DNA of 64,000 nucleotides from Candidatus Sulfotelmatobacter kueseliae (GCA_900290255.1 OMOD01000122.1:14314-78313); one strand, 5' to 3'. Shown: positions 25,976-57,719, counted from the first letter of the stretch. Notes: generated by a model from the sequence alone, not told the origin. Translations and numbers: made by a program.

Positions 25976-27310
25976 ATGGCTTCGATTGAAAAGAGAATTA
26001 TCTCCGCGCTCTTGGCCAAGATGCGAAAGCGCCGCGGTGCGCGCATGGCTCCACACGGAAAGTTGAGCGTCGACTCCACAGCTGTGGTGCCGCCGGCCAG
26101 ACTCCGAGAAGCACTTTTTTCAGATTTTGCAGCTGTGGCCGAACTCAAGCGACGCTGGGGGCTGGGTGCTGATTCACTAGAAAACTGGGAACGCTTGTGG
26201 TGTCGTAACCCGGCACTGGTAGGAAGTGGAGTTAAGCGTCCGATCGGCTGGGTTCTGGAAGCAAACGGAGCCATTGTTGCGTACCTTGGTAACATCTCGT
26301 TGCAATGCCGTTATGGAGACAGAACGCTAACCGCTGTCACGGCAACTGCTTTTGTGGCGGAACCCCCGTACAGAGCACTCGCGGTAACTTTGGCGGCTGC
26401 TTTTTATCGTCAGAAATCTGTCGACCTCTTCATCACCAGTTCCGCAATTGAGGCTTCCGGCAAAATCGCACTTGCTTTCAAGTGCGCTGCTTTGCCGGAA
26501 TCGGATTATGACACCGTCCGATTCTGGGTTTTGCGTTCTTATCCGTTTGCCCAGGTATTGATGAACGAACTAAGGGTTAGCCGGCTACTCTTGCCGATTG
26601 GCAGCATTCTCGCCGCACTTGCGATCAGGGCGGATACGATTATCCGGAGGCGCTGGCCTAGGCGGTCTGCGATACGACTCGCCGTGAGCGAAATCAGCCT
26701 AGACGATGTCGGGGATGATTTTCAGACGCTATGGACAGAGAAAATCAAAGAGAAGACCCGTCTGTATGCGGACCGCAGTGCGGCCACTCTACGATGGCAC
26801 TTCGACATACCCGGAGATAGAGGACGCGTGCGCGTGCTTTGCTGCCATAAAGATGGAAAACTTGACGGCTACGCCGTAGTCCGCAGCGAAGTAGATCCCC
26901 GGGCTGGCCTGCGTACGTCGACCGTCGCGGATATGATAGTCAGGCAGGATGATCCAGCGGTTGTACATGCTCTCTTGGTCGCGGCCTACGAACACGCAAA
27001 GAATGAGGGAAGCGAAATTTTTCAGATACAAGGTTTCACGTGCGACGTACGGGAAGTATTTTCTGATTGGGCACCGTATCAGAGGAAATTTCCGGCTCAC
27101 CCCTACTTTTACAAAGCGACAGACCCAGTTCTGCATAGGGTCCTGGGCGACCCGAAGGCTTGGTATGCCTGCCCCTTCGACGGAGATGCAAGCTTAGTTC
27201 GGCCCTCCTATTCGAGTTGTGACTCTCATGCAACTTTTCAGCGGGAAACGGAAAGTACTCAAACCGTTGTCGCTGTTGTTTCCGAGAGTGAACGAACCCA
27301 CGTGTCTTGA
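25976..27310 (+). CDS. Tandem GNAT-like (acyltransferase-fold) protein, paralogue of the C-terminal domain of the NRPS-PKS
   Basis: 444 aa. Alignable by eye over its length to residues ~2325-2692 of ORF 47576..55654 (for example GWVLEANGAIVAYLGNISLQCRYGDRTLTAVTATAFVAEPPYRALAVTLAAAF vs VYEGKNGRIVGFLGVVRRKMSLRGRPLCIAVGGNFVVAPEARSSLAGLRLLTAY). The V-x-P-x-x-R...A/G stretch resembles GNAT motif A. Confidence 0.55.
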   Translation: MASIEKRIISALLAKMRKRRGARMAPHGKLSVDSTAVVPPARLREALFSDFAAVAELKRRWGLGADSLENWERLWCRNPALVGSGVKRPIGWVLEANGAIVAYLGNISLQCRYGDRTLTAVTATAFVAEPPYRALAVTLAAAFYRQKSVDLFITSSAIEASGKIALAFKCAALPESDYDTVRFWVLRSYPFAQVLMNELRVSRLLLPIGSILAALAIRADTIIRRRWPRRSAIRLAVSEISLDDVGDDFQTLWTEKIKEKTRLYADRSAATLRWHFDIPGDRGRVRVLCCHKDGKLDGYAVVRSEVDPRAGLRTSTVADMIVRQDDPAVVHALLVAAYEHAKNEGSEIFQIQGFTCDVREVFSDWAPYQRKFPAHPYFYKATDPVLHRVLGDPKAWYACPFDGDASLVRPSYSSCDSHATFQRETESTQTVVAVVSESERTHVS

Positions 27311-27678: not shown

Positions 27679-29310
27679 ATGGTCATGACTGAACTTGAAA
27701 GGCCGAAGACGTTGATGGTGGCGGCCATCCGCATCAGCGATGTCGTAAGACAGTGGGCCGAGCACTTGCCCGACCACCCAGCGCTGGTCGAGAGCACGGG
27801 CACCTGGACGTATCGGCAACTGGCTTCCGCAGTCTCAGAGACTGAATCCTGGCTTCGCGAATTGAGCGTGCGTCCGGGCGATCGAGTCATGATCGTGGGC
27901 GAGAACTGCCGGGCTTTCGTGGCAATTCTCTTGGCTTCGGCAGGCATCGACGCGTGGCCCGTGCTGGTGAACGCCCGTCTCTCGGGGCGGGAGATTGACG
28001 AGATTCTGGATCACTGTGGTGCTCGTCGCGTCTTTTACACGGCAAGCGCATCGCCACATGCGGCAGACCATGCCAAGCGAAGCGGCGCGTCGTTCGAGGA
28101 GAGGAAAGGCTTTGGTTCGGTTGGTATTGGCCCCTTGCAGGAAAGCGTTGAGCCGGAGCCACTCGAGGCAAGCGTTTCCGATCGCGTCGCCGCTCTGATC
28201 TACACGTCGGGCACAACAGGGCTCCCGAAGGGCGTCATGTTATCCCACAGGAACCTCCTGTTTATGGCGGAAGGATCAGCCAAGATCCGATCCGTCAGTC
28301 CGGGCGACAGACTCTATGGCGTCCTCCCCTTGTCTCACGCCGTCGGCCTTTCCGTGGTGTTGTTAGGCGCGTTGGTTGCCGGCGCATCGGTGTATTTGAC
28401 GCCGCGGTTCGACCCGATGACGGCGCGGGTGACGCTGGAGAAGGAGCGCCTCACCTTGCTGTTGGGTACGCCCGCCATCTTTAACCAACTACTGCAATAC
28501 GCGAAGCTCAGAAAGATTTCGTCTCTGAAGTTTCCGGTACTCCGCATCATTTCATCTTCCGGAGCTCCGCTCGATCCCATTACCAAGTCGGGAATCGAGA
28601 GTCTTTTTGGCATGGTGCTGCACAACGGTTACGGTGTGACGGAATGTTCCCCCACGATTGCGCTGACGCGCCCGGAAGCACCTCGCACTGACACCTCAAT
28701 CGGAGCCGTTTTTCCCGGGGTAGAGGTAAAGTTCGTGGACAGCGACGGCCACGCGGTGGCTCCAGGTGCGGTCGGCGAGTTGCGAGTGCGTGGGCCCAAC
28801 GTTATGAAGGGATACTACCGAGCTCCGGAGGAGACAGGGTCTGCGATCGACGCCGAAGGATGGTTCAACACTCGCGACCTTGCGCGGCTGGAGGACGGGA
28901 ACCTCGTCATTGTGGGGAGGGCGAAGGATCTGATTATCCACAAGGGGTTCAACGTTTATCCAGCCGAAGTGGAGGCCGTACTCAATTCTCATCCAGCGGT
29001 GGTTCAATCTGCTGTCGTTGGTCGATCCGTTGAAGGGGACGAGGAGATTGTCGCTTTCGTTCAAACCTCGCCAGAAGCAGCTTTGACGCCCGTTGACGTG
29101 GCCAAGTACGCCGAACAACGCCTTGCTCGCTACAAGCGGCCGTCAAAAATCGTGATTCTGACGGAGATGCCGACGACCGCGACCGGGAAAATCGCAAAAG
29201 GAGTGCTCAAGAAAGTTGTTGAAGGCAGCGAATTCGAGGTAAAGATCGATGTCAAGTTTAAAATCAGCGAGCTCCACTTGACCGGTGAGAGCCCAGGAGG
29301 AAGAAACTAA
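27679..29310 (+). CDS. AMP-dependent synthetase/ligase (acyl-AMP / acyl-ACP ligase type)
   Basis: ALIYTSGTTGLPKGVMLSHRNL, NGYGVTE, WFNTRDLA, GKIAKGVL. Confidence 0.9.
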   Translation: MVMTELERPKTLMVAAIRISDVVRQWAEHLPDHPALVESTGTWTYRQLASAVSETESWLRELSVRPGDRVMIVGENCRAFVAILLASAGIDAWPVLVNARLSGREIDEILDHCGARRVFYTASASPHAADHAKRSGASFEERKGFGSVGIGPLQESVEPEPLEASVSDRVAALIYTSGTTGLPKGVMLSHRNLLFMAEGSAKIRSVSPGDRLYGVLPLSHAVGLSVVLLGALVAGASVYLTPRFDPMTARVTLEKERLTLLLGTPAIFNQLLQYAKLRKISSLKFPVLRIISSSGAPLDPITKSGIESLFGMVLHNGYGVTECSPTIALTRPEAPRTDTSIGAVFPGVEVKFVDSDGHAVAPGAVGELRVRGPNVMKGYYRAPEETGSAIDAEGWFNTRDLARLEDGNLVIVGRAKDLIIHKGFNVYPAEVEAVLNSHPAVVQSAVVGRSVEGDEEIVAFVQTSPEAALTPVDVAKYAEQRLARYKRPSKIVILTEMPTTATGKIAKGVLKKVVEGSEFEVKIDVKFKISELHLTGESPGGRN

Positions 29311-31988: not shown

Positions 31989-32765
31989 CTAGCTCGGAGA
32001 ATTTTGGCCTGCCAGGAACCCGCCGTCGAGAACCATGCACTGGCCCGTCATGAAAGAGGCGCGATCCGAGCACATCCATACCACCGCCTCGGCCACTTCG
32101 GCCGGTCTTCCGAAACGGCCAACAGGATGGCAACTCAGAACATATTTGTGGACGTTGGGAGCCCCAAAGAGACGCTCGGACATAGACGTTTCGATCACTC
32201 CGGGGCAAACTGCGTTGATGCGAATTCCACTGCGTGCCATTTCCAGCGCGGTAGACTTCGTCAGCCCGATCACTCCATGTTTGCTCGCGCTATACGCTGC
32301 CGCCCCCGCAGACCCGACTAGGCCTGTAATCGAAGCCATGTTTACGATTGCTCCACCCTTACCCTGCTTCACCATCTGCTTAATTTCATACTTCAGGCAG
32401 AGCCAGGCACCCTTGAGATTGACTTGAATGGTCCGATCCCAATCTTCTTCGGATTGTCTGATGATCGGTGCCCAGACGCCTTCGATCCCTGCGTTATTGA
32501 AGGCTACGTCCAAGCGACCAAATCTCTCTACTGCTTTCTGGATGAGCGCTTCGACTTCGGAGGCTTTTGAGACATCGGCTTTTACGAATAGGCCCTCGCC
32601 TCCGGAGGCACGGATCAACTCGATCGTTTCCTCGCCTTCCGGCTCGCGTCGGCCCGCAATCACTACTTTTGCACCCGATTTCGCGAAAAGTACGGAGGTC
32701 TCACGGCCCACACCCGACGTCCCACCAGTGACGAGGCCGACCTTGCCTTCCAATTCTCTTGTCAT
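31989..32765 (-). CDS. Short-chain dehydrogenase/reductase (FabG/glucose-1-dehydrogenase-like)
   Basis: GKVGLVTGGTSGVGRET (TGxxxGxG), NNAG, YSASKHGVIGLTK (YxxxK), PGVIET. Confidence 0.9.
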   Translation of the reverse strand: MTRELEGKVGLVTGGTSGVGRETSVLFAKSGAKVVIAGRREPEGEETIELIRASGGEGLFVKADVSKASEVEALIQKAVERFGRLDVAFNNAGIEGVWAPIIRQSEEDWDRTIQVNLKGAWLCLKYEIKQMVKQGKGGAIVNMASITGLVGSAGAAAYSASKHGVIGLTKSTALEMARSGIRINAVCPGVIETSMSERLFGAPNVHKYVLSCHPVGRFGRPAEVAEAVVWMCSDRASFMTGQCMVLDGGFLAGQNSPS

Positions 32766-40766: not shown

Positions 40767-41018
40767 ATGGAAGAATTGTTGACCAAAGTGCGGACGGCCT
40801 TTCAATCAGCGTTCAGCATTGATCCGCAGACCGTTACTATTGACACTGTACCAAGCGACGTTCCGGCTTGGGACTCCATGGGACATGTCACGCTGGCTAG
40901 TAGCCTCGAACAAGCCTTCGGCTTGACTTTCGATGTAGACGACCTGATGGCGATGGAGGACGTGAAATCAATCTGCCGGGTCGTACAATCCAAGCTAGGT
41001 CAGGTTCAACGTGCGTAA
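40767..41018 (+). CDS. Acyl carrier protein
   Basis: 83 aa; DVPAWDSMGHVTLASSLEQAFGLTF contains the DSxx attachment motif. Confidence 0.8.
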   Translation: MEELLTKVRTAFQSAFSIDPQTVTIDTVPSDVPAWDSMGHVTLASSLEQAFGLTFDVDDLMAMEDVKSICRVVQSKLGQVQRA

Positions 41019-42507
41019 TGGTATTGAGGGGAACTTCGCGCGCTGTCTGGTTGAGCGTTTGGGAGAAACCTCCTGTTTGATTGACGCGGCAACTGGGCAG
41101 ACCGTTCCTAGTCATGATCTCCCCAATCTGATTGTCGGTTTCGCGGCCGGTCTCCGATCGGCCGGACTGGGGCCGGGTGACAGGATGTTGGTGGGTTGTC
41201 GCGTGAGTCCAGCCAGCACGTTGGCCTACCTCGGCGCCATGTACGCCGGAGTGGTACCCGTGCCGACAGAAGAGCGCCTGCTGTCCGCCTCCGGAGGTTT
41301 CCTGCTAGCTCAGTCGCAAGCTAAAGTCGTATGGACCGACAAAGGGACCAAGTGCGATTGGCTGAAGAGCCATAGCGTCTGTCACATCGAAGGAACTTTC
41401 GAGGCCTGTTCTCCCGACTCGCTCCCGCCGCACCCTTGCGCAGAGAATGATCTCGCCGTCTTGATGCCGACGTCAGGTTCTACAGGCGTGCCTAGGTTGG
41501 TCATGGTCGCTCATAGCAACTTGAAGTCCAATACGGAAGCGATCATTCGCAGCCAACGTCTAGGAACCGATGAAAGGGCCATGCTGATCATGCCGGTGAG
41601 TTATTGCTTCGGCGCCAGCGTGATGCACACTCACCTTTATCAAGGCGGCGGAGTCGTCTTTGATTCTCGGTTCATGTTTCCGGACAAGGTGCTGCACGCC
41701 ATCAACACCTATGGCTGCACGACGTTTGCTGGAGTTCCGGTCATTTACAACGTTTTGCTCCGGCGGTCGAATCTCAAGTCGATCCCCCTGCCTAGTCTGC
41801 GCCGTTTTCTTCAAGCCGGAGGTGCGCTTGCTCCTGAAAATGTGCGGGAGATGCGCCACATCGTACCCACCGCAGAATTTCTGGTCATGTATGGCCAGAC
41901 CGAAGCCACAGCACGGATTTCCTGTCTGCCCAAGGCTCGTTTACAGGAGAAGCTGGGGAGCGCGGGCATTCCACTGGACAATCTTGAGGTCCGCATCGTG
42001 GATGAGGAAGGACGGGAAGTACCGCAGGGGCAGATCGGGGAAATTCAAGTCCGAGGTCCGTCGGTGTGCTTCGGATACCTGGATGATCCCGAATCTACCG
42101 ACCGCAAGTTCGGCGGCGGCTGGCTTAAGACCGGCGATTTTGCCTGTTGCGATAAAGATGGATATCTTTGGATCAAAGGGCGCACGGACGAGTTCATCAA
42201 AATTCGTGGCGTTCGGGTAAGCGTTGGTGAAGTCGAGACCAAGGTGGCGGCCATGCCCGGCGTTAGCGAATGTGCGGCGGTGGCAGTGAAACATCCAGAG
42301 GCCGGTGAAGCCTTGGCGCTACTGATCGTTCCTGACAACAGCGCGACAGAGAGCGCGGTTGCTGAAAATCATGGGGATGACCTCGGCGATCGAATCCGGC
42401 GCGCACTTCCGCCGCACTGGACCTGCGCTTCCGTCAAGATAGTCGCTGAATTGCCGAGAACAACGAATGGCAAGATCGCCCGTTCTCAGTTGCAGACGTT
42501 GTTATGA
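41011..42507 (+). CDS. AMP-dependent synthetase/ligase
   Basis: VLMPTSGSTGVPRLVMVAHSNL, YGQTE, WLKTGDFA, GKIARSQL. GTG start overlaps the ACP stop. Confidence 0.9.
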   Translation: MRNGIEGNFARCLVERLGETSCLIDAATGQTVPSHDLPNLIVGFAAGLRSAGLGPGDRMLVGCRVSPASTLAYLGAMYAGVVPVPTEERLLSASGGFLLAQSQAKVVWTDKGTKCDWLKSHSVCHIEGTFEACSPDSLPPHPCAENDLAVLMPTSGSTGVPRLVMVAHSNLKSNTEAIIRSQRLGTDERAMLIMPVSYCFGASVMHTHLYQGGGVVFDSRFMFPDKVLHAINTYGCTTFAGVPVIYNVLLRRSNLKSIPLPSLRRFLQAGGALAPENVREMRHIVPTAEFLVMYGQTEATARISCLPKARLQEKLGSAGIPLDNLEVRIVDEEGREVPQGQIGEIQVRGPSVCFGYLDDPESTDRKFGGGWLKTGDFACCDKDGYLWIKGRTDEFIKIRGVRVSVGEVETKVAAMPGVSECAAVAVKHPEAGEALALLIVPDNSATESAVAENHGDDLGDRIRRALPPHWTCASVKIVAELPRTTNGKIARSQLQTLL

Positions 42508-46126: not shown

Positions 46127-47200
46127 GTGTACGGAACTGCTCCGCAGTTTGGCATCTATGGCGTGGCCACGGGCAGCGGCAACTCGGTGGGTGTGTACGG
46201 TAATGGCGTCGACGGCCTGCAGGGCGCCGGCACCATCCACGGCGTCTACGCCAACGGCACCCAATACGGCGTCACCTCCTTCACTTCTGCCGGCGTTGCG
46301 GGAATCTACGGGGTTTACGGAGGCGCAAGCGGAACCGGGCAGACCTGGCTTGATAACACAGGCACTGGCGGCGCCGTTTGGGCTGACACCATTAGCCCCA
46401 CCGGCGGTTACTTCATCCCCGCCTTGCTCGCCACGACCGACAATAACGAAGCAGCTGTCTTCGAGAACAATTCAAACGATTACGAAACGATCGACGTTTA
46501 CAACTATGGGAGCGGGGGCACCGGCAACGTCGTGCGCGCCGAGGGCAGCACGGGAAGTTGCACCCTCACCGGCGGCGGTGACACCGCCTGCACGGGCGTC
46601 CTGAAGTCCGTGGTTGCAACCAGCCAAGGTGCGCGGCGGGTCGAAACCTACTCTGTACAGTCATCGGAGAACTGGTTTGAAGATGCGGGCACGGCCCAGC
46701 TTGTCAATGGAGCCGGCCGCGTCAACCTGGAATCCGTCTTCGGGCAAACTGTGAATACCGGCGTCGAATATCACGTCTTCCTGACTCCGGACGGCGACTG
46801 CAAGGGGCTCTACGTCAGCGCCAAAACAGCGTCCGGTTTTGAGGTACACGAACTCGGCGGCGGCACTTCCAGTGTCGCATTCGAATACCGCATCATGGCC
46901 AAGCGCGTAGGTTATGAGAGCGTCCGCCTTGCGGACGTCACGGAGCGATTCAACCGACAAGAAGCACGAAGCAAGAACATGCGGCGACCTGCGCGGTCGT
47001 CAGCTGATCGGCGATCCAGTTCACGGATAACAACGCCGCCGCCAGTGCATCCAGTGGTCGAGCAACAACTGGCCCCGAAAATGCTGGTGCTGCCGGTTCT
47101 GGCATCGGCTGCGCCGCTGCCAGCGCCGGTAACGCCCAAGCTGACACCCACGCCGCCAGTCCGGGCTGCGCTGCAACCGATGGCTGCTCAACCCAAGTAA
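46127..47200 (+). CDS. Gly-rich GxYG-repeat protein with conserved C-terminal domain; no signal peptide, possibly 5'-truncated
   Basis: GTG start. Repeats GIYGV/VGVYGN/HGVYAN/GIYGVYGG are followed by ETYSVQSSENWFEDAGTAQLVNG...YHVFLTPDGDCKGLYV...FEYRIMAKRVGYE and a Pro/Ala-rich tail. Confidence 0.45.
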   Translation: MYGTAPQFGIYGVATGSGNSVGVYGNGVDGLQGAGTIHGVYANGTQYGVTSFTSAGVAGIYGVYGGASGTGQTWLDNTGTGGAVWADTISPTGGYFIPALLATTDNNEAAVFENNSNDYETIDVYNYGSGGTGNVVRAEGSTGSCTLTGGGDTACTGVLKSVVATSQGARRVETYSVQSSENWFEDAGTAQLVNGAGRVNLESVFGQTVNTGVEYHVFLTPDGDCKGLYVSAKTASGFEVHELGGGTSSVAFEYRIMAKRVGYESVRLADVTERFNRQEARSKNMRRPARSSADRRSSSRITTPPPVHPVVEQQLAPKMLVLPVLASAAPLPAPVTPKLTPTPPVRAALQPMAAQPK

Positions 47201-47575: not shown

Positions 47576-50500
47576 CTAGTCATCAAAGTTAAGGCACCAC
47601 TCTCCATCCAAACGTGATAGGCTGGCGTCCCCTCGAACTAGGAGTTCCAGAAGTTCGGGCTTGCGAGAGTGCGCGATTGTCCAGCCACCGCGGCCGCATG
47701 TGAAGAAACAATTTTTCTGCGATAAGGCGTCCATCAAGTGGATTGGAGCAGTCCCGTGGAGGCCGACCGCGCCTTGACTCCAGGCATCGTAGAAAAGATG
47801 GTCAAGAATGTCCTTGCCGAACCGGCTCTCACCACCGATCTGCACCGCTTGGGCCACATCGCCAATCTTCGGATAGTAGATATACCAGCCAACGACCTTC
47901 TGACGGTCATCACGAAGAACAATCTTCCGCAGTTCTGACCGGGGGTGCATCCGCTCCATGAACGTCAAGAGCCATTTCAGCGAATCGACTTCATAATCAG
48001 GCAGAATTGAATGGTCACTGCGGAATTTCGCTAAACAGTGAAGAAGCACTTCAACGTCTAGCTCTGCGGCCTGCAGATGAGACGGGATCGGACGTAAGGG
48101 GCTGAAGGGAAGTCTTGCACCGATGGCGTCCACGACGCTACAAAAGGGTCTTGCGGCAATCCTAAGGCTGGCGGAGAGCGTGGGCCCCGCTAACTTGGAC
48201 ATGGCGTGGGCAGCGTAATTCGTCAGCCGCAAGGGGCGTGCCCAGTGCATGCTCAAGGGCATAATAGTCCTGAAGCCCATTCGTTCCAGCAGACTCCTAG
48301 ATATATCGTTTGCTGAATCCGTCAACGAAATGTCCTGCTCTCCTGCCATGTACGCCGTCAGCAGACGCAAGCCAGCCAGCGAGGACCGCGCCTCCGGAGC
48401 AACCACAAAATTGCCACCAACGGCGATGCAAAGCGGCCGTCCGCGGAGAGACATTTTCCGTCGGACTACACCTAGGAAGCCTACAATTCTGCCGTTCTTG
48501 CCTTCATAAACACGGGAAGGCGTTCTCTCGTCGATCAAAGGACTCCTGAAATAAAGCTCCTCAAAATATGAGTGGAGTCCGGACGGAGGAGCGCCCTTGC
48601 CGTAACGCAGGAATTTCCACCACAGGTCCGCTACCTGCGGGATATCGTCGACAGCAAACGGGCGCAGACCCGGATCTTTCCGCGCCAACCCTAGCGAAGG
48701 CCCATCTTCCGCCTTCATACCCCGCCCGAGAACACTCGCCAGTTTTCGTGGGGTAGGGGCATCGTAAAGAGCCGCGAGCGGCGGGGTGCATCCTAACTCG
48801 CTTTGGATCAAGGCGAACAACTGCGCCGCAGCCACGGAGTGGCCGCCTAAAGCAAAAAAGTCGTCGTCTGGCCCAATCTCGCTGCCATTCAACACACGCT
48901 GCCAAAGCGGGATCAAGGATTGGACTAACGTGGCCTCCGACATCCCGGAGATGGTCGGCGTATCCGAGAATTGCTGTGGCGCCCCGGGTGTCGAGCCCAA
49001 AGCCGGCGACACGGATTGCCGCGTCATTTCTCGGTTTGGAATGCGTTTGTAAACGATCTCAGTGGCGGAAGCAGTCTCGCTCCACTTGAGCCGGGCTAGC
49101 TGCGTTACTTTCCGTGAAGGATCGGCCGCCAGCTCTTCAAAGATGGAGCCTAGCGTCACCAGCCATTCTCGTACGGTAAGATCCGCAAAGAGCTTGATGT
49201 CATAGTGGCAGTGCAACGCCAGGTTTTCTTCTGCCTCCACCACATTCAGATAAAGCTCGAACGATTCGAAAGCCTTGGGGTTGGCCTCGTAGTCGACGGC
49301 AAATCCGAATTGCGGTAACTCGTTTTGCTTGAACTTCTTGATGTTGGTAAGTCCAACCGAGATCGGGGAAATGCCAGGCGTAGGCGCAGCCGGGTGGAGA
49401 TCTTCCATCAAGCTCACCATTGTAAAGATGGCGTGCTCGTGAGCGGCGAGAAGATCGGCTTGTACGCGCTTTAGGAAAGCCTCCGCTGCTTCGCCTTCGC
49501 GTAACTCCACGGCAAAGGGAAGAAGGTTGACGCAGTGTCCGACGAGACCAGGCTGTCCGATAGACGGTTGTTCCGCAGTGGGCAGAGTGATCACAAAGCG
49601 ATGCTGCCGCGAGATGCGGGCTAGCAGAATGGCCAGAGAACTGAGCAGGACCGCGAAGAAGCTGCAGTTATGTTCGGCTCCCAGCGCTCTGAGATCGCGC
49701 ACTACCGAGGCTGAAATCGAGTGATCGAGACGGCGGGCGTTGAATTCACGCCGCGCACTCCGCGGGTGGTCTGTCGGAAGCACGAGCACGGGGAAACCAT
49801 CATGGAATTTCGCGTGCCAATAGTTGCCCGCTTGCTTGAATTCTGCGGAGCGCTCCCGCTCCGTTGTGTTCTTCACGTAATCGCCGTAACTGTCTGCGAG
49901 CTCTAGGTGCACAGGCGCACCTGAGAGTTCTTCCGAATAGAAGGCGCAGAGATCGTGGATCAGGACATCCAGCGACCAGCCATCGCAAATAATGTGGTGT
50001 GCCGTGATGATGACCGCAGCACGCTCGGCACCGAGCAAAACCATTTGGCAGCGGAACAGAGGGCCTGCGGGCAGAGGGAACGGCAATGCTGTTTCATCGG
50101 CAATCAGTTTGCGGAAACGTTGCTCTTGCCAGTCCGGTTCGTTGGCCGGAACCTGCATTGAGAGATCAGTCACCGGCATCGCGATCTTCAGGGCCGGGGC
50201 GATCTTCATCATCCTGCCAGTTTCGTCGAAACTGGTGCGTAGGGCGTCATGTCGTTCCACCAGACGTTCCATGGCGCCCATCATTTTCGCGACTGAGATC
50301 TTGCCGGTGAATCGCAGCGTCATGGATTCGTTGTAAGACGCCGACAAGCGCTCGGACAAACGCGAGGACGAGAAAATACCCCGCTGCGGAACCGTAGCTT
50401 CGATATCGCGTGGACTGGAACGCACGATGGCGGGCTTCGAACCATCTGTCGATAATTTCTGGACCACCGGCGTCTCATCTTCCGCGGCTATGCGATTTCC

Positions 50501-53500
50501 ACCGCCTTTCTCGAGAAGCGCAACCAGCCGGGCGATCGTGCGCGCTTGCTCGACAACCGCTTCTTCGAGCGTGCTGCCCTTGGACTGGATACTTGGCTGA
50601 GCATTCGTCCGGACGTCCGCAAGAGAGTTTGCGGTCGGAATAGGAGTGGCTTCGGCGAGAGCCTCGGCAGGCAGGGTCGAATCAAGATGCGCCGCCAACA
50701 TGTCAATGTTGGGGAACTGCTTCATGAGCTGACTGAAGCTGACCTTCACGGAGAACTCCTTTTGGACAGCGAAGGCGACCTGGGTTAACGACAGCGAGTC
50801 GAATCCCTGCTCCATGAACGTAGCGGAAGTGTCAATTTGCGAACGTTCGCGTCCGGAGACAGGTAAGAGCAGATCAATCACGCGCGCAGCGATGCGGTCC
50901 TTGCGCGAGCCTGCCCCGCGTCCCGACGTAACGGCCTCTGTGAGTGCAGACGGGAGAGCAGACGGCGCCACGGAGGGCTCGGTTGATGGCTCAACTCGGA
51001 CGCCAGCCGCCGCACTCGAACTCCTGTTCTCGGGATTTTGCGCAGTGGACGCCTCGGCGGGATCCACCCAGAACCGCTGCCGCTCAAACGGGTAGGTCGG
51101 CAATGGTATGCGATGACGCTCTTCGTTAGTGTAAAAGCCTTCCCACTCAATGGACACGCCATTCTGCCAGAGGGACCCCAGGGCAAAAAGCAGAGTAGCC
51201 CACTCGGTGTTGTTCTCCGCCGTGTCGGCAAACGTCGGGATCGCGGTACAAGGATGATCGGGCGTAAAGTGCTGGCGGGCCAATGCACACATTGTGGAAC
51301 GTGGTCCGCATTCCAGGAAAAAGTCGTGTCCTTGCTCCTTAAGGCATAGGATGGCTTTTGAAAACTCCACTGTAGCCCGAGCATGATTGGCCCAATACGC
51401 GGGATTGCTGGTCTCGGCGGCGGTAATGGAGCGTCCTGTTACCGTCGAGACAAAGGGCTTGGCCGGAGCACGCAAGCGGATTTTGGCAACGGCCTGGCGC
51501 AACGGCTCGATCATGGGATCCATCATCGCGGAGTGGAAGGCATGTGAGGTGTGCAGTTGGCGGCAGACAAAGTTTTCGGCCTCGAGTTGCTTCCGGAATT
51601 GCGCAATATTCTCTTCCGGCCCCGACACCACGCATAGAGCGGGAGCATTGTTGGACGCAAGCTGAAGTCCAGGCGGAAGAATCTTTGCAACCGATTCCGC
51701 GCTGCTGCTCACGGCCATCATGGAGCCACGCGGCAGTTCCTGCATCAAGCGTCCCCGCAGAGCGACAACGCTGAGTGCATCCTCGAGATCCCACACCCCG
51801 GCGAGCGTGGCAGCGACAAACTCTCCGATGCTATGTCCCGCCATCAGGGCAGGCTCGACGCCGAGGCTTTGCCAGAAGCGCGCCAGCGCGTATTCGATGA
51901 CAAAAATCGACGGCTGTGTGAAGAACGTGTCCCGCAATGATATCTGAGCCGTCTCTTCGTCTCCGCTCTGGGGATAAAGAAGTTCGCGCAAATCCCGGCC
52001 GAGATGCGGTTTAAGGCACTCGCAACAATCGTCAACGACTGCGCGAAAAAGCGGCTCGTCACGATAGAGGTTCAATCCCATGTTGACGTACTGCGTGCCC
52101 TGACCGCCGAAAAGGAAAACGATGGGTGGATCGCGACGCTCGCAGCGTTTGCTCCCGCAGCGTAACGGATTCGGTTGCAAGAGCAGCTTGGCGGCATCGC
52201 CGGAATCGGCGGCTACCACGAATCGCCGCTGCGCCAGCTGTTTGCGCCCGGTTTGGAAGGTGTAGGCCACATCGGCCAGATCTTCCGGTGCGCTCGCGAG
52301 ATGCTCGGCCAACGCCCGGCTGTAGGCATCAAGGGCTGCTGGACTCTTGGCTGAGAGCGGCAAGAGTTGCAGTGGGCGCGAAGGCCGCCCGCTCTTTGCC
52401 ACCGGCGCTTCTTCCAGGATGACGTGGACATTCGTCCCGCCAAAGCCAAACGAGCTGACCGCTGTGCGACGCACTCCCTTTCCACGAGGAAACGGGATGA
52501 GCTTGTCGGCCATGAGGAACGGGCTGCCACCGAAATCGATCTTGGGATTGGGTGTCTTGAAATGCAGGGTCGGAGGAATTTGCTCGCGATGGAGAACGAG
52601 GGCCGCTTTGATCAGGCCTGCAACTCCAGCGGCATTGGTGGGATGCCCGATGTTTCCTTTGATGGATCCGATATAACAGAAGTTCTTCTTGTCGGTCTTG
52701 TTCTCAAAAACTCTTCGCAGAGCTTCGAATTCAATCGGATCGCCGACCGGGGTGCCCGTACCGTGCGCCTCGATGTAGCCGATAGTCTCGACCGGGACGT
52801 TAGCATTTGCCTGCGCCAGGGCAATGGCCTCCGCTTGGCCGTCCACGCTCGGGGCCAGAAAAGAAGCGGGGCGGGCACCGTTGTTGTTCTTGCCGGTGCC
52901 GCGAATGACGGCATAAATGGTGTCGCCATCGGCTAGAGCTTCGGCATACCGCTTGAGGACGACCACGCCGGCGCCGTCGCAGAACATGGTTCCGGTAGCG
53001 TCAGCATCAAAAGGACGGCAGTGGCCATCTTTGGAGAACGTGCCTCCCTGCTGATATAGGAATCCGCTCCTCTGCGGCACCGTGATGTCGATGCCGCCCG
53101 AGAGTGCGATGTCACATTCGTAGTCGAGCAGTGAGTGGTAGGCTTCGTCGATAGTCAGGAGCGTAGTCGAACAGGCTGTATTGAGGCTGACCGCGGGTCC
53201 GCGAAGGTCCAGCAGATAAGCGGTGCGCAGGGCGATGTAGTCTTTTTGGTTGCCGTACTCAACGGCCAGCTTGCCGGCCATGGCCAACAAATCCGGTTGC
53301 GTCAAGAGGTTCGTGGTGTAGTAGTGATTGTCACCGATACCCGCGAACACTCCAATGCGCCCTTTATAGCGCTCGGGGTCGTACCCGGCGTTTTCCAGCG
53401 CCTGCTGCGCCAGTTCGAGAAAGATCCGCTGCTGCGGGTCCATGACCTTGGCTTCAAGCGGATTGATGCCAAAGAACGCGGCATCGAAGAGATCCGCGCC

Positions 53501-55654
53501 CTCGATCAAGCCGCGGGCCCGGATGTAATCGGGATCGCGGCGCAGATGGGGATCGATGCCAGGTCCCAGTTCTTCGGGTGTGAAAAAAGAGATCGATTCG
53601 ACGGCATTGCAGAGGTTGCGCCACAGCTGATCGAGATTGGCCGCTCCCGGGAAGCGGCCCGTCATACCGATCACCGCGACACCTTCCCGCAGAAGCCCGT
53701 CCTCGGTGGCCGGATTTCGTTCTGACTTGGGCTGCGGATTCCGCCGATGCCGCGCCCGCTCTTCAGCTTCGGCAACCAGATCGGACTTGCTCTCACTCTC
53801 TTCTAGGAACTCTGCGAGCTTCGCGATCGTGGGATACTGAAAGACCTTGACGGGAGGAATCTCGCGCCCAAAGCGCGTGTGATACTGATTCACCATACGG
53901 ACCGCTGCCAGCGAATTGCCGCCGAGATCGAAGAAGCTGTCATCAATTCCAACCTCTTCGAGTTGCAGCAGCTCGCACCAGAGACTTGCCAGTTGCCTTT
54001 CGGCTGCTGTGCGCGGAGCGATAAATTCCTGGGCGAGCAGCGGCCGTTTGCCCTCGGGCCGGGGCAGGGCTTTGCGATCAATCTTGGCGTTCGGAGTCAG
54101 AGGGAATTTCTCCAGACGCACGAAAACGGAAGGGATCATGTAGTCGGGAAGCGTAGTTTTGAGGAACTGAACGAGAGAGGTGGAACTCAGACCTTCGCGG
54201 CCCGTGTAATAGGCGGCTAGGCGTTTCTCTCCCGGACGGTCCTCGCGTAGGATCACGACGGCCTGGGCGATTCCTTCAACTTTGGCCAGCGAGCTTTCGA
54301 TCTCGCCCAGTTCGATGCGAAAGCCGTGGAGCTTCACCTGGTTGTCGAGACGCCCCAGAAATTCCAGTGAACCGTCGGGCCGATAGCGGACTTGGTCACC
54401 AGTACGGTAGAGCCGCTCACCCCGTCCCTCGCGGGTGGGATCGAGGACAAACCGTTCAGCCGTCCACTCGGGGGGGTTGAGATACCCACGAGCCAAACCC
54501 GCACCGCCAATCCAGAGCTCGCCGGGAGTCCCTTGGGAAACCGGTTTGTGGTTTTCATCGAGCAGGTGGAATTGCGTGTTGGCAATGGGTGTGCCGAGCG
54601 AGACCAGGTCGGGTGAGGTCACGCGCTCAGTCGAGGACCAGATCGTGGTCTCCGTCGGCCCATACATGTTCCAGAGTTCGCGGCAGCGAGGCAGCAATTG
54701 CCGAGCGATGTCCGCGGTCAGAGCCTCTCCCCCGCAAAAGACTCGCAGGTCACTCTTTCCTTCCCAGCCGTTTTCGAGAAGCATGCGCCAGGTCGCCGGC
54801 GTCGCCTGCATCACGGTGATCGCGTGTTGATGTAGCAGCGTCTGGAGTTCACGGGCGTCCGCAGCCTGTTCCGCAGTGGCGAGAACAATCTCGGCGCCGC
54901 AGACCAGCGGGAGCAGGAATTCCAGGAGCGAGATGTCAAAGGAACTCGTCGTGACCGCCAGGAGCCGATCGGAAGAAGCTATGCCCGGTGTTTCCGCCAT
55001 CGACAGCAAGAAATTGACCAGTGCCCGGCGCTGGATCATGACCCCCTTGGGTTTTCCCGTCGAGCCCGAAGTGTAAATCAGATAGGCGAGATGTTCGGGC
55101 TTTCCAGATGAGGCGAGGTTGGTCGCCGGCAGCCCGGCGATCGACTGATTCTCGACGTCGAGTGAAATAACTCGCGCAGCAGTTTCCGGCAGGCTCCCCC
55201 GCTTGGAAGAATGTGTCAGGAGAAGAGGGACTGCGGAGTCCGCCAGCATGAACGCCAGACGGTCGTTCGGAAACTTCGGATCCAGGGGCAGGTAAGTTCC
55301 GCCGGACTTGAGGATGGCAAAAAGGCTCACAACGGAAGCGAACGAACGGTCAAGATACACACCCACCACGCTCTCAGGACCGACTCCTTGCTGGCGAAGG
55401 AAGTGTGCTAGGCGGTTTGAGCGGGAATTCAGCTCCCGGTAGGAAATTCGTTCTGCACCCAGGGAGAGCGCGGGAGCGTCAGGCGTACGCTCGGCTTGCT
55501 CCTCAATCAGCTCGTGCGGGCCTCGCCGCAGGGGCGCAAAAGTTCTTGCGACACCACGAGTCAGTTTCCCGTGACCCGGGCCACTAGTCTTGGAGGGCGC
55601 TGTCGAACCACCATCCCGGACTGCAATTTCTTCGACATCACTGCGTAACTTCAT
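47576..55654 (-). CDS. Hybrid NRPS-PKS megasynthase, domain order A-T-KS-AT-T-C-T-(GNAT-like), 2692 aa
   Basis: Single uninterrupted ORF. The core motifs of every domain were located by eye (see the domain sub-features). Confidence 0.95.
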   Translation of the reverse strand: MKLRSDVEEIAVRDGGSTAPSKTSGPGHGKLTRGVARTFAPLRRGPHELIEEQAERTPDAPALSLGAERISYRELNSRSNRLAHFLRQQGVGPESVVGVYLDRSFASVVSLFAILKSGGTYLPLDPKFPNDRLAFMLADSAVPLLLTHSSKRGSLPETAARVISLDVENQSIAGLPATNLASSGKPEHLAYLIYTSGSTGKPKGVMIQRRALVNFLLSMAETPGIASSDRLLAVTTSSFDISLLEFLLPLVCGAEIVLATAEQAADARELQTLLHQHAITVMQATPATWRMLLENGWEGKSDLRVFCGGEALTADIARQLLPRCRELWNMYGPTETTIWSSTERVTSPDLVSLGTPIANTQFHLLDENHKPVSQGTPGELWIGGAGLARGYLNPPEWTAERFVLDPTREGRGERLYRTGDQVRYRPDGSLEFLGRLDNQVKLHGFRIELGEIESSLAKVEGIAQAVVILREDRPGEKRLAAYYTGREGLSSTSLVQFLKTTLPDYMIPSVFVRLEKFPLTPNAKIDRKALPRPEGKRPLLAQEFIAPRTAAERQLASLWCELLQLEEVGIDDSFFDLGGNSLAAVRMVNQYHTRFGREIPPVKVFQYPTIAKLAEFLEESESKSDLVAEAEERARHRRNPQPKSERNPATEDGLLREGVAVIGMTGRFPGAANLDQLWRNLCNAVESISFFTPEELGPGIDPHLRRDPDYIRARGLIEGADLFDAAFFGINPLEAKVMDPQQRIFLELAQQALENAGYDPERYKGRIGVFAGIGDNHYYTTNLLTQPDLLAMAGKLAVEYGNQKDYIALRTAYLLDLRGPAVSLNTACSTTLLTIDEAYHSLLDYECDIALSGGIDITVPQRSGFLYQQGGTFSKDGHCRPFDADATGTMFCDGAGVVVLKRYAEALADGDTIYAVIRGTGKNNNGARPASFLAPSVDGQAEAIALAQANANVPVETIGYIEAHGTGTPVGDPIEFEALRRVFENKTDKKNFCYIGSIKGNIGHPTNAAGVAGLIKAALVLHREQIPPTLHFKTPNPKIDFGGSPFLMADKLIPFPRGKGVRRTAVSSFGFGGTNVHVILEEAPVAKSGRPSRPLQLLPLSAKSPAALDAYSRALAEHLASAPEDLADVAYTFQTGRKQLAQRRFVVAADSGDAAKLLLQPNPLRCGSKRCERRDPPIVFLFGGQGTQYVNMGLNLYRDEPLFRAVVDDCCECLKPHLGRDLRELLYPQSGDEETAQISLRDTFFTQPSIFVIEYALARFWQSLGVEPALMAGHSIGEFVAATLAGVWDLEDALSVVALRGRLMQELPRGSMMAVSSSAESVAKILPPGLQLASNNAPALCVVSGPEENIAQFRKQLEAENFVCRQLHTSHAFHSAMMDPMIEPLRQAVAKIRLRAPAKPFVSTVTGRSITAAETSNPAYWANHARATVEFSKAILCLKEQGHDFFLECGPRSTMCALARQHFTPDHPCTAIPTFADTAENNTEWATLLFALGSLWQNGVSIEWEGFYTNEERHRIPLPTYPFERQRFWVDPAEASTAQNPENRSSSAAAGVRVEPSTEPSVAPSALPSALTEAVTSGRGAGSRKDRIAARVIDLLLPVSGRERSQIDTSATFMEQGFDSLSLTQVAFAVQKEFSVKVSFSQLMKQFPNIDMLAAHLDSTLPAEALAEATPIPTANSLADVRTNAQPSIQSKGSTLEEAVVEQARTIARLVALLEKGGGNRIAAEDETPVVQKLSTDGSKPAIVRSSPRDIEATVPQRGIFSSSRLSERLSASYNESMTLRFTGKISVAKMMGAMERLVERHDALRTSFDETGRMMKIAPALKIAMPVTDLSMQVPANEPDWQEQRFRKLIADETALPFPLPAGPLFRCQMVLLGAERAAVIITAHHIICDGWSLDVLIHDLCAFYSEELSGAPVHLELADSYGDYVKNTTERERSAEFKQAGNYWHAKFHDGFPVLVLPTDHPRSARREFNARRLDHSISASVVRDLRALGAEHNCSFFAVLLSSLAILLARISRQHRFVITLPTAEQPSIGQPGLVGHCVNLLPFAVELREGEAAEAFLKRVQADLLAAHEHAIFTMVSLMEDLHPAAPTPGISPISVGLTNIKKFKQNELPQFGFAVDYEANPKAFESFELYLNVVEAEENLALHCHYDIKLFADLTVREWLVTLGSIFEELAADPSRKVTQLARLKWSETASATEIVYKRIPNREMTRQSVSPALGSTPGAPQQFSDTPTISGMSEATLVQSLIPLWQRVLNGSEIGPDDDFFALGGHSVAAAQLFALIQSELGCTPPLAALYDAPTPRKLASVLGRGMKAEDGPSLGLARKDPGLRPFAVDDIPQVADLWWKFLRYGKGAPPSGLHSYFEELYFRSPLIDERTPSRVYEGKNGRIVGFLGVVRRKMSLRGRPLCIAVGGNFVVAPEARSSLAGLRLLTAYMAGEQDISLTDSANDISRSLLERMGFRTIMPLSMHWARPLRLTNYAAHAMSKLAGPTLSASLRIAARPFCSVVDAIGARLPFSPLRPIPSHLQAAELDVEVLLHCLAKFRSDHSILPDYEVDSLKWLLTFMERMHPRSELRKIVLRDDRQKVVGWYIYYPKIGDVAQAVQIGGESRFGKDILDHLFYDAWSQGAVGLHGTAPIHLMDALSQKNCFFTCGRGGWTIAHSRKPELLELLVRGDASLSRLDGEWCLNFDD
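47579..48682 (-). other. C-terminal ~370-aa tandem GNAT-like domain (paralogue of 25976-27310); not a TE or R domain
   Basis: No GxSxG or Rossmann motif. FVVAPEARSSLAGLRLL resembles GNAT motif A. Collinear similarity to the stand-alone 444-aa protein. Confidence 0.55.
48731..48943 (-). other. Peptidyl carrier domain T3 (Ser2273), no cognate A domain in cis
   Basis: DDFFALGGHSVAAAQL. Confidence 0.8.
49100..50413 (-). other. NRPS condensation domain
   Basis: HHIICDGWS (HHxxxDG at residues 1886-1892), preceded by ATVPQRGIFSSSRL and followed by YGDYV and LPTDHPR. Confidence 0.8.
50675..50902 (-). other. PKS-type acyl carrier domain T2 (Ser1620)
   Basis: FMEQGFDSLSLTQVAF. Confidence 0.8.
51215..52126 (-). 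other. Acyltransferase domain (Ser1275), malonyl-type HAFH motif
   Basis: FLFGGQGTQY, MAGHSIGEFVAA, LHTSHAFHSAMM. Confidence 0.85.
52409..53686 (-). other. Ketosynthase domain (Cys828, His964, His1004)
   Basis: VAVIGMTGRFPGA, SLNTACSTTLLTI, IEAHGTGTPVGDPIE, GSIKGNIGHPTNAAG, SSFGFGGTNVHVILEE. Confidence 0.9.
53801..54013 (-). other. Peptidyl carrier domain T1 (Ser581)
   Basis: DDSFFDLGGNSLAAVRM. Confidence 0.85.
54050..55522 (-). other. NRPS adenylation domain (residues ~45-535), predicted glycine-specific
   Basis: LAYLIYTSGSTGKPKGV, SSFDISLLE, NMYGPTETT, GELWIGGAGLARGY, YRTGD, PNAKIDR. Hand-extracted 10-residue code: D-I-L-Q-F-G-M-I-W-K. Confidence 0.85.
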
Positions 55655-56570: not shown

Positions 56571-57719
56571 GTGAACCAACAAATCCAATTCTCGAGGAGA
56601 AGAACCGGAGCGCTATGTCTGTGCGCGGTCTCAGCCGTTCTTATGGCCACGCTGTGGCCCTTTGATTTTCTTCCAAGGAATGCCGTCGACTGGATTCAAG
56701 GCACAAACGGACTAAGGTTCAGGAAAGCCGGCGTGGTCCTCAGCAGCGATCCTCTGAAAATGGCAAATACCGAGGCCGATTCGTACAGCGTTGAGGTCTT
56801 GCTTCGGCCGGCAAGCGTCAAGCGGGACTATACGATCTTGGGCTTCCACAACCCGACACGGACGAAACAGTTGCTCGTCAAGCAATGGACGGACGGTCTT
56901 CTGGTGACTCACGATGCTTCCGTCGATCGCGACGGAACGGGAACTATCAAGTTCGATGTTAACCATGCGTTCGTTCCTGACAAACTCGTCCTTGTGACAC
57001 TCTCTTCGGGGCCAAGTGGAACGAGAGCTTATCTGAACGGCCGACCGGCAGGTTCTTTCCCTCGATTCAAGATCTCACGCAGTGAATTGGCAGGCGAGAT
57101 CGTTCTTGGGACTTCACCAGTGACCTACCAGCCATGGCCGGGTGAAATCCATGGTCTTGCCGTCTTCGCAAAAGAGCTCACGGCTGACGAAGCACTCCAG
57201 CACTACCATGACTGGAGCAATCCTGACGGCCGCACCCCGGATCGTGAAGCAGCGATCGCTCAGTACAGCTTTACTGAGGGGGCGGGCCGTGAAGTTCAGA
57301 ACGACATATCCTCCGAACCGAATCTGCGAATACCTTCAGCTTTCTCAGTCCCGCACAAAGCCTTGTTGCGGCCTGCGGCCGAGGAGTTCAGGCCTGACCG
57401 GCGCTACGCGTTCGACATCGTGATCAATATCGCGGGATTCGTTCCGTTAGGTCTGATTATGTGCTCGTATCTCATGTGGACGAAAGGTCGTTGGAGAGCG
57501 ACCCTGATCGCCATCTTCCTCTGTGGAACGCTGAGCTTCATGATTGAGGTGTTGCAGTACTACATCCCGCGACGGGAATCGGGAACGACCGACGTCATCA
57601 CGAACACGCTGGGAGCTGCTCTGGGTGCCGCGCTCGTCCATGCAAGTGTCTTTCGGCTGATACTAGAGAAGATGACGCTAATCCCCGGCGCTCAAGGGGC
57701 CTCGCAACACGGACGATGA
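56571..57719 (+). CDS. VanZ-like membrane protein with N-terminal anchor and LamG/concanavalin-like extracytoplasmic domain
   Basis: C-terminal VINIAGFVPLGLIMCSYL...FLCGTLSFMIEVLQYYIPRRESGTTDVITNTLGAALGAAL is VanZ-like. The middle region (SVEVLLRPASV...YLNGRPAGSF) looks like a lectin/LamG beta-sandwich. Confidence 0.65.
   Translation: MNQQIQFSRRRTGALCLCAVSAVLMATLWPFDFLPRNAVDWIQGTNGLRFRKAGVVLSSDPLKMANTEADSYSVEVLLRPASVKRDYTILGFHNPTRTKQLLVKQWTDGLLVTHDASVDRDGTGTIKFDVNHAFVPDKLVLVTLSSGPSGTRAYLNGRPAGSFPRFKISRSELAGEIVLGTSPVTYQPWPGEIHGLAVFAKELTADEALQHYHDWSNPDGRTPDREAAIAQYSFTEGAGREVQNDISSEPNLRIPSAFSVPHKALLRPAAEEFRPDRRYAFDIVINIAGFVPLGLIMCSYLMWTKGRWRATLIAIFLCGTLSFMIEVLQYYIPRRESGTTDVITNTLGAALGAALVHASVFRLILEKMTLIPGAQGASQHGR

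Follow-up and report, generated by a model that had tools for sequence, protein, structure and literature searches.

A hybrid nonribosomal peptide synthetase (NRPS)-polyketide synthase (PKS) of 2692 residues, encoded in the uncultured soil acidobacterium Candidatus Sulfotelmatobacter kueseliae, is predicted to start its chain with glycine and to extend it by one unreduced malonyl unit. The gene lies on the minus strand at 47576-55654 of the 64,000-nucleotide stretch that we analyzed as a whole (GCA_900290255.1 OMOD01000122.1:14314-78313; hereafter the window), and all features of the protein given below are on the same strand. Based on the list of open reading frames (ORFs), the translation, Pfam and NCBIfam, its domain order is A-T1-KS-AT-T2-C-T3-X, that is, adenylation (A), ketosynthase (KS), acyltransferase (AT) and condensation (C) domains interspersed with three carrier domains (T1 to T3) and followed by an end domain, which we call X. 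The same architecture was found in 14 full-length orthologues from metagenomes and metagenome-assembled genomes, some of which are named Candidatus Sulfotelmatobacter. Judged from sequence motifs, a glycine starter, a malonyl extender and a 4-amino-3-oxobutanoyl thioester on T2 are well supported.

The A domain (residues 45-535; 54050-55522) matched Pfam AMP-binding with an E-value of 9e-89 (residues 51-392, with AMP-binding_C at residues 451-524) and scored 444 bits against the amino-acid adenylation model TIGR01733, for which the cut-off is 317. A motif search of the translation returned exactly the ten specificity residues that an earlier sequence-only reading had assigned by hand (D240, I241, L244, Q283, F306, G308, M330, I338, W339 and K524), the numbers used there being the ORF's own. 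The motifs carrying them start at residues 239 (FDISLLE), 279 (ITVMQ), 305 (VFCGGE), 329 (NMYGPTETTIW) and 522 (NAKIDR). The first four make up the specificity-pocket segment (54638-54940) with nine of the ten code residues, and the last is the A10 motif with Lys524 (54074-54091), which is invariant in all orthologues. The resulting code, DILQFGMIWK, corresponds to GrsA positions 235, 236, 239, 278, 299, 301, 322, 330, 331 and 517. The GrsA columns were set by the conserved cores FDxS, GGE, NxYGPTE and GKxDR (1AMU ranked 29th in the search of the PDB), and pocket alignments with AB3403 and DhbF gave the same code columns. D240 thus takes the place of Asp235, which binds the alpha-amino group, and K524 that of Lys517, which binds the carboxylate.

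The sequence-only reading had placed this code within one or two positions of known glycine codes, and the count holds, with one mismatch to DILQLGMIWK and two to DILQLGLIWK. The single difference from DILQLGMIWK, to which nine of ten residues are identical, is Phe for Leu at position 299. In the available part of a 2025 survey of 93 glycine-activating domains, DILQLGMIWK is listed among the glycine codes, the main family of which varies at positions 299, 322 and 330 only, and the DILQ half sets glycine codes apart from the related Cys and Thr codes (PMC12283262). The A domains of the orthologues, which are 69-79% identical to ours, keep the pattern DILQ.G..WK and vary only at 299 (F/L) and 322 (M/L): ten of the 14 have DILQFGMIWK, three have DILQLGMIWK and one has DILQFGLIWK. 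The F/L exchange indicates that the family toggles between DILQFGMIWK and the canonical glycine code. Phe in place of Leu299 would add bulk and leave a smaller pocket, which may suit the smallest amino acid.

Among solved structures, DhbF-A1 and AB3403 were the best matches both for the whole domain and for the pocket. The A-T1 region gave its best single-domain scores with DhbF (5U89, 537 bits) and AB3403 (4ZXH, 472 bits), and a search with the 131-residue pocket segment alone ranked AB3403 (120 bits) and DhbF (99 bits) first. Ranks three and four went to 8WWW (88 bits) and to 8XJZ, through its second A domain (65.6 bits), neither of which has an established substrate, and the best pocket match with a known non-glycine substrate was 7EMY (51.5 bits). 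The 4ZXI structure of AB3403 contains AMP and glycine, and in 5U89 a glycyl vinylsulfonamide inhibitor traps the glycine module of DhbF (PMC10510592). Read from the alignments, the codes of DhbF-A1 and AB3403 are DILQLGLIW and DILQLGVVW, respectively, compared with DILQFGMIW here, so that both have Leu at position 299 where the megasynthase has Phe. DhbF was solved with an MbtH-like protein, whereas none was found in the genome of our organism (96% complete), and the A domains of DhbF-A1 and AB3403 sit after a C domain, whereas the present one heads a PKS module. At the level of sequence, this A domain shows every feature of glycine-specific A domains, and it very probably activates glycine.

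The adjoining T1 (53804-53995; Pfam PP-binding, residues 554-617) is a carrier of the peptidyl carrier protein (PCP) type with the motif LGGNS around Ser581, which is kept in the orthologues. In the KS domain (52559-53686; residues 657-1032; Pfam ketoacyl-synt and Ketoacyl-synt_C), the Cys-His-His triad is intact, with Cys828 in TACST and the two histidines in EAHGTGT and NIGH, and all three motifs are invariant. KS is the most conserved domain among the orthologues (84-90% identity), compared with 69-79% for A, 60-73% for C and 55-68% for X. It is followed by a KS-AT linker (residues 1096-1158) and by the AT domain (51215-52120; residues 1179-1480; Pfam Acyl_transf_1, E-value 7e-58).

Malonyl-specific AT domains are marked by the fingerprints GHSIGE, HAFH and DTFFTQP, and methylmalonyl-specific ones by GHSQGE and YASH. 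The HAFH motif, from which the sequence-only reading had deduced a malonyl-CoA type, is indeed present at residues 1371-1374 (51533-51544); it and GHSIGE (residues 1273-1278, with Ser1275) lie in AT, outside 54050-55522. GGQGTQY, DTFFTQP, GHSIGE, RGRLM and SHAFHS were invariant in 15 sequences, and an alignment to CurL showed that the Arg of RGRLM, which binds the extender carboxylate, and the GQGxQ oxyanion motif are present. On these sequence features, the domain is classed with malonyl-specific extender ATs. Its best PDB match and closest structural relative was the CurL KS-AT didomain (4MZ0, 227 bits), with which it shares GHS.GE and SHAFHS, and the Pfam model of the CurL-like KS-AT linker also matches our protein. 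CurL comes from a multi-module PKS with reductive processing, whereas the present module is minimal, consisting of KS, AT and an acyl carrier protein (ACP), and would accept, unlike CurL, an aminoacyl starter from a PCP.

T2 (50675-50872; residues ~1600-1656 in the Pfam/NCBIfam table) was recognized by Pfam PP-binding, in three stretches, and by the motif GFDSL around Ser1620 as a PKS-type ACP. Pfam detected no ketoreductase (KR), dehydratase (DH), enoylreductase (ER), thioesterase (TE) or reductase (R) domain in the 2692-residue protein, bearing out the earlier remark on the first three, and none of the interdomain gaps is long enough to contain one. Because there is no reductive domain, the T2-bound product is predicted to be 4-amino-3-oxobutanoyl, the same intermediate as proposed by the sequence-only reading, and the glycine code, the malonyl motifs of AT and the lack of reductive domains all support this assignment.

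The last two modules of the althiomycin synthetase Alb5/AlmB likewise pair a glycine NRPS module with a downstream malonyl PKS module that lacks KR. There, glycine and one malonyl unit give, without reduction, a gamma-amino-beta-ketoacyl thioester, for which cyclization to a pyrrolinone has been proposed (PMC3445576). Our protein has the same A(Gly)-T-KS-AT(malonyl)-ACP series without KR; the upstream C domain and the terminal TE of the althiomycin system are not found, nor is a conserved counterpart of its dedicated O-methyltransferase. In althiomycin biosynthesis, the nitrogen of this glycine already carries the upstream peptide in acyl linkage, the pyrrolinone is closed by a TE and the pathway depends on the O-methyltransferase, whereas here glycine would start the chain with its amine free, and the protein continues into C-T-X and has no TE. 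The methyltransferase adjoining the megasynthase gene in the window is not conserved at the orthologous loci. The Gly-malonyl unit would thus work like the althiomycin modules but, lacking an upstream C domain, a TE and a conserved O-methyltransferase, is not of the althiomycin type.

Downstream of T2, the C domain (49085-50401; residues 1752-2190; Pfam Condensation, E-value 5e-66) has an intact HHIICDG motif (residues 1886-1892), and its best PDB matches were the elongation C domains of Txo1, Txo2, McyB and TycC. T3 (48719-48922; residues ~2250-2310 in the Pfam/NCBIfam table) was identified by the PCP signature LGGHS with Ser2273 and lacks a dedicated A domain. Its identity is 32% with T1 and 25% with the PKS-type T2; this closeness to T1, together with the PCP signature, suggests that T3 is aminoacylated by an A domain. 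The serines of all three carriers and the HHxxxDG motif of the C domain were invariant in the orthologue comparison, suggesting that the C-T3-X tail is in use.

We examined which enzyme could charge T3. The genome contains a single C domain, the one described here, and only one other A domain above the cut-off of the amino-acid model (L036:5771-7366 on contig C5 of G000; 531 residues), which lies next to radical-SAM and CofD-like proteins. It was rejected as a loader of T3, since its code reads DIFFSSVVVK and the five other genomes with a megasynthase contain no orthologue of it. The two ligases of the window (41011-42507 and 27679-29310) were rejected as well, as Asp235 is replaced in them by Cys or Ala and they do not recur at the orthologous loci; they are therefore predicted to activate carboxylic acids and not alpha-amino acids. 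With no Asp235 in the ligases and no conserved partner gene, the megasynthase's own A domain is left as the candidate loader, and we tentatively propose, as close to an even call, that it places glycine on both T1 and T3. The sequence-only reading had left the C domain to pass the intermediate to whatever is loaded on T3; T3 is kept as the acceptor, and glycine from the protein's own A domain is put forward as its most likely charge.

A precedent is HMWP2 of the yersiniabactin synthetase (ArCP-Cy1-A-PCP1-Cy2-PCP2), whose one A domain, placed upstream, charges PCP1 as well as the A-less PCP2 in cis (PMC9547227). As in HMWP2, a condensation-type domain in the megasynthase is followed directly by an A-less PCP, and no other dedicated amino-acid activator is conserved. 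The two systems differ in that a complete PKS module separates the A domain from the A-less C-T pair here, that the predicted substrate is glycine and not cysteine, and that a C domain stands in place of a Cy domain; the double loading would be a further likeness.

The last ~370 residues form X (47579-48700), for which Pfam gave only weak matches to GCN5-related N-acetyltransferase (GNAT) models and no firm family assignment. At an E-value of 1e-3 or below, the X family comprised 1821 clusters, mostly of stand-alone proteins of ~365 residues, and many of its members are found in polysaccharide loci. An AlphaFold2 model of X built with 93 sequences reached a pLDDT (predicted local distance difference test) score of 94, and Foldseek placed N-myristoyltransferases (NMTs) at the top of its matches (E-value ~1e-12, TM-score ~0.5), followed by Eis-type acetyltransferases. 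The predicted tandem-GNAT fold is the two-lobed one of NMT (3IU1, 1NMT), at a sequence identity of 10-13%. The conserved residues of X include E367 and G271 (domain numbering). NMT itself acylates amines, taking the acyl group from a phosphopantetheine thioester. Its donor is an acyl-CoA, whereas X is fused behind a carrier and its donor would probably be the carrier-bound chain. The position of a thioester-to-amine acyltransferase fold behind a carrier suggests that X releases the chain by transferring it to an acceptor. A specific link from NMT to glycine was rejected for X, since the family is broad and one related locus has X beside an A domain with a Leu-like code. A 357-residue ORF of the window (46127-47200), considered as an X homologue, showed no BLAST similarity to it.

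Stand-alone relatives of X were also observed in related genomes, some of them 53-67% identical to the fused domain. One of these, a 377-residue protein that is 62-63% identical to fused X (L001/L009; G503:C1:2746584-2747672), occurs in a genome that also carries a full megasynthase elsewhere. This suggests that the fused X was recruited recently from a free acyltransferase. A second locus of that genome, which belongs to the same genus (L037; G503:C1:2324000-2343900), contains genes for an acyl ligase, LuxE, LuxC, a methyltransferase and a FabA-like protein, followed by three tandem X genes whose products are 53-55% identical to fused X. The opposite strand of this locus encodes a free C domain, in which HHxxxDG was not found, a P450, an A-T protein with the Leu-like code DAWFLTNVVK and a homologue of the window ORF at 25976-27310. 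The locus looks like a dissociated relative of the cassette in the window, combined with NRPS parts.

Among 400 sampled genomes of the order, six, from two genera, carried the megasynthase. The 12-kb flanks of the six orthologues share essentially no gene, and none of the ACPs, ligases, LuxE, LuxC, methyltransferase, short-chain dehydrogenase/reductase (SDR), FabA-like and VOC proteins of the window has a counterpart within 12 kb of them. Dependence on the LuxE/LuxC cassette was also rejected, since this cassette is present in only one of the five other carrier genomes, each of which is at least 97% complete. With no conserved neighbors, the megasynthase looks self-sufficient and appears to work without dedicated partner genes. 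The only window neighbor with a counterpart near an orthologue is a VanZ/concanavalin-like lectin protein encoded upstream of the megasynthase (56571-57719), whose counterpart is 34% identical (G763, L034:6720-7934). Two orthologous megasynthase genes are split (G721:C7:659688-661457 and G763:C1:1008381-1015188; 985 aa; 1548 + 1236 aa), which could reflect frameshifts, decay or errors in long-read assembly.

Taken together, the domains suggest the following pathway. The A domain would activate glycine and load it onto T1, while AT would transfer malonyl from malonyl-CoA to T2. KS would then take up the glycyl group and condense it decarboxylatively with malonyl-T2, yielding 4-amino-3-oxobutanoyl-S-T2 with the beta-keto group retained. 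The steps up to this point are read from intact motifs that are conserved across the family. In the steps beyond it, which we infer, the C domain would join this beta-ketoacyl donor to the aminoacyl group on T3, most likely a second glycine charged by the same A domain, as in HMWP2. Finally, X would hand the (4-amino-3-oxobutanoyl)-glycyl chain from T3 to an amine or hydroxyl acceptor in place of hydrolysis. We consider this whole course, from the glycine start to the transfer by X, to be probable.

Several observations weigh against this pathway, and each leads to an alternative or to a weaker link. For the extender, ZmaA, a hydroxymalonyl-ACP acyltransferase, was the fourth-best structure match of AT, below CurL, which leaves a small doubt on malonyl. 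For the starter, the exact code DILQFGMIWK was not found in the literature searched, and Phe at position 299 is not documented among the glycine codes in the available part of the survey, where Leu or Met is documented (PMC12283262); the third-best pocket match, 8WWW, is of non-established specificity. The A domain might thus take another small substrate (alanine, serine, sarcosine or beta-alanine), or AT might use hydroxymalonyl- or aminomalonyl-ACP, but we regard this as quite improbable. A Phe for Leu exchange would make the pocket smaller, the orthologues exchange F and L, and the DILQ half marks glycine codes as opposed to Cys and Thr codes in the same part of the survey (PMC12283262). 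As for the extender, HAFH, GHSIGE and DTFFTQP fit malonyl, CurL outscores ZmaA, and the flanks of the orthologues share no gene, leaving no conserved neighbor to make a hydroxy- or aminomalonyl extender. Less likely still, to the point of being very improbable, is a reduction of the beta-keto group in trans to a 4-amino-3-hydroxybutanoyl unit resembling gamma-amino-beta-hydroxybutyric acid (GABOB). Gamma-amino-beta-hydroxy acids are common units of NRPS-PKS products, and the window does encode a FabG-like SDR with similarity to KR domains (31989-32765), which the sequence-only reading had offered as a trans-acting reductase. However, this gene lies 15 kb away behind unrelated operons, the 12-kb surroundings of the six orthologous genes contain no SDR homologue and no neighbor of any kind is conserved, and we therefore rejected it for this role.

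The later steps are open to other objections. The case for the upstream A domain as the loader of T3 is made by exclusion and precedent only, and an alternative is that T3 is charged in trans with another amino or acyl group, for example by one of the ACP/ligase cassettes of the window or by X itself as a loading acyltransferase. T3 has no A domain before it, the window holds two ACP-ligase pairs and a LuxE-like enzyme, and the related locus described above combines such a cassette with a trio of X genes, a free-standing C domain and an A-T protein; GNAT domains also load carriers in the loading modules of CurA-type PKSs. On the other hand, the ligases of the window lack Asp235, T3 is of the PCP type, the window neighbors do not recur near the orthologues, LuxE occurs in only one of the five other carrier genomes and orthologues of the other amino-acid-type A domain are not conserved, making trans loading unlikely. 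As for release, the TM-score between X and NMT is only ~0.5 and the acceptor of X is putative. On chemical grounds, a gamma-amino-beta-keto thioester with a free amine should readily lactamize to pyrrolidine-2,4-dione, so that, without rapid transfer or masking of the amine, the linear intermediate may be lost before it reaches the C domain. Likewise, the N-(beta-ketoacyl)-aminoacyl thioester predicted for T3 is a classic Dieckmann substrate leading to a 3-acyltetramic acid, and cyclized products are serious rivals to the linear chain. The protein could accordingly release a tetramic acid, through lactamization on T2 or through Dieckmann closure on T3 to 3-(aminoacetyl)tetramic acid, in which case X would stand in place of the release domain of PKS-NRPS tetramate synthetases. 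Retention of the beta-keto group without KR and the lack of detected TE and R domains would agree with this, and tetramate-forming PKS-NRPSs are laid out as KS-AT-T-C-(A)-T-release. Pyrrolinone cyclization of the althiomycin Gly-malonyl thioester offers a proposed parallel (PMC3445576). Against lactamization on T2, the C, T3 and X domains are all conserved with intact catalytic residues. The acyl-CoA N-acyltransferase fold of X and the occurrence of its stand-alone relatives in carrier-protein cassettes fit acyl transfer better, and we know of no GNAT-type Dieckmann cyclase. We judge release of a tetramic acid to be slightly less likely than trans loading of T3, and prefer the linear route with transfer by X.

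The substrate prediction itself is ordinary, since known assembly lines also add malonate after glycine. The surrounding layout is unusual as read from the sequence, combining a free-amine glycine starter, an A-less C-T pair, a GNAT end domain and a single autonomous gene. It is possible, if rather doubtful, that this protein by itself turns two glycines and one malonate into a new small metabolite or a surface decoration, with X as a new kind of release catalyst that either transfers (4-amino-3-oxobutanoyl)-glycyl to an amine of another molecule or closes 3-(aminoacetyl)tetramic acid.

The substrate calls provide a concrete chemical starting point for an orphan megasynthase that, as far as sampled, occurs only in two Acidobacteriota genera from peat and soil. 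Should the predicted Gly-C2-(Gly) unit prove correct, it would define the cargo of a large uncharacterized family of carrier-protein-dependent acyltransferases that spans ~1800 sequence clusters.

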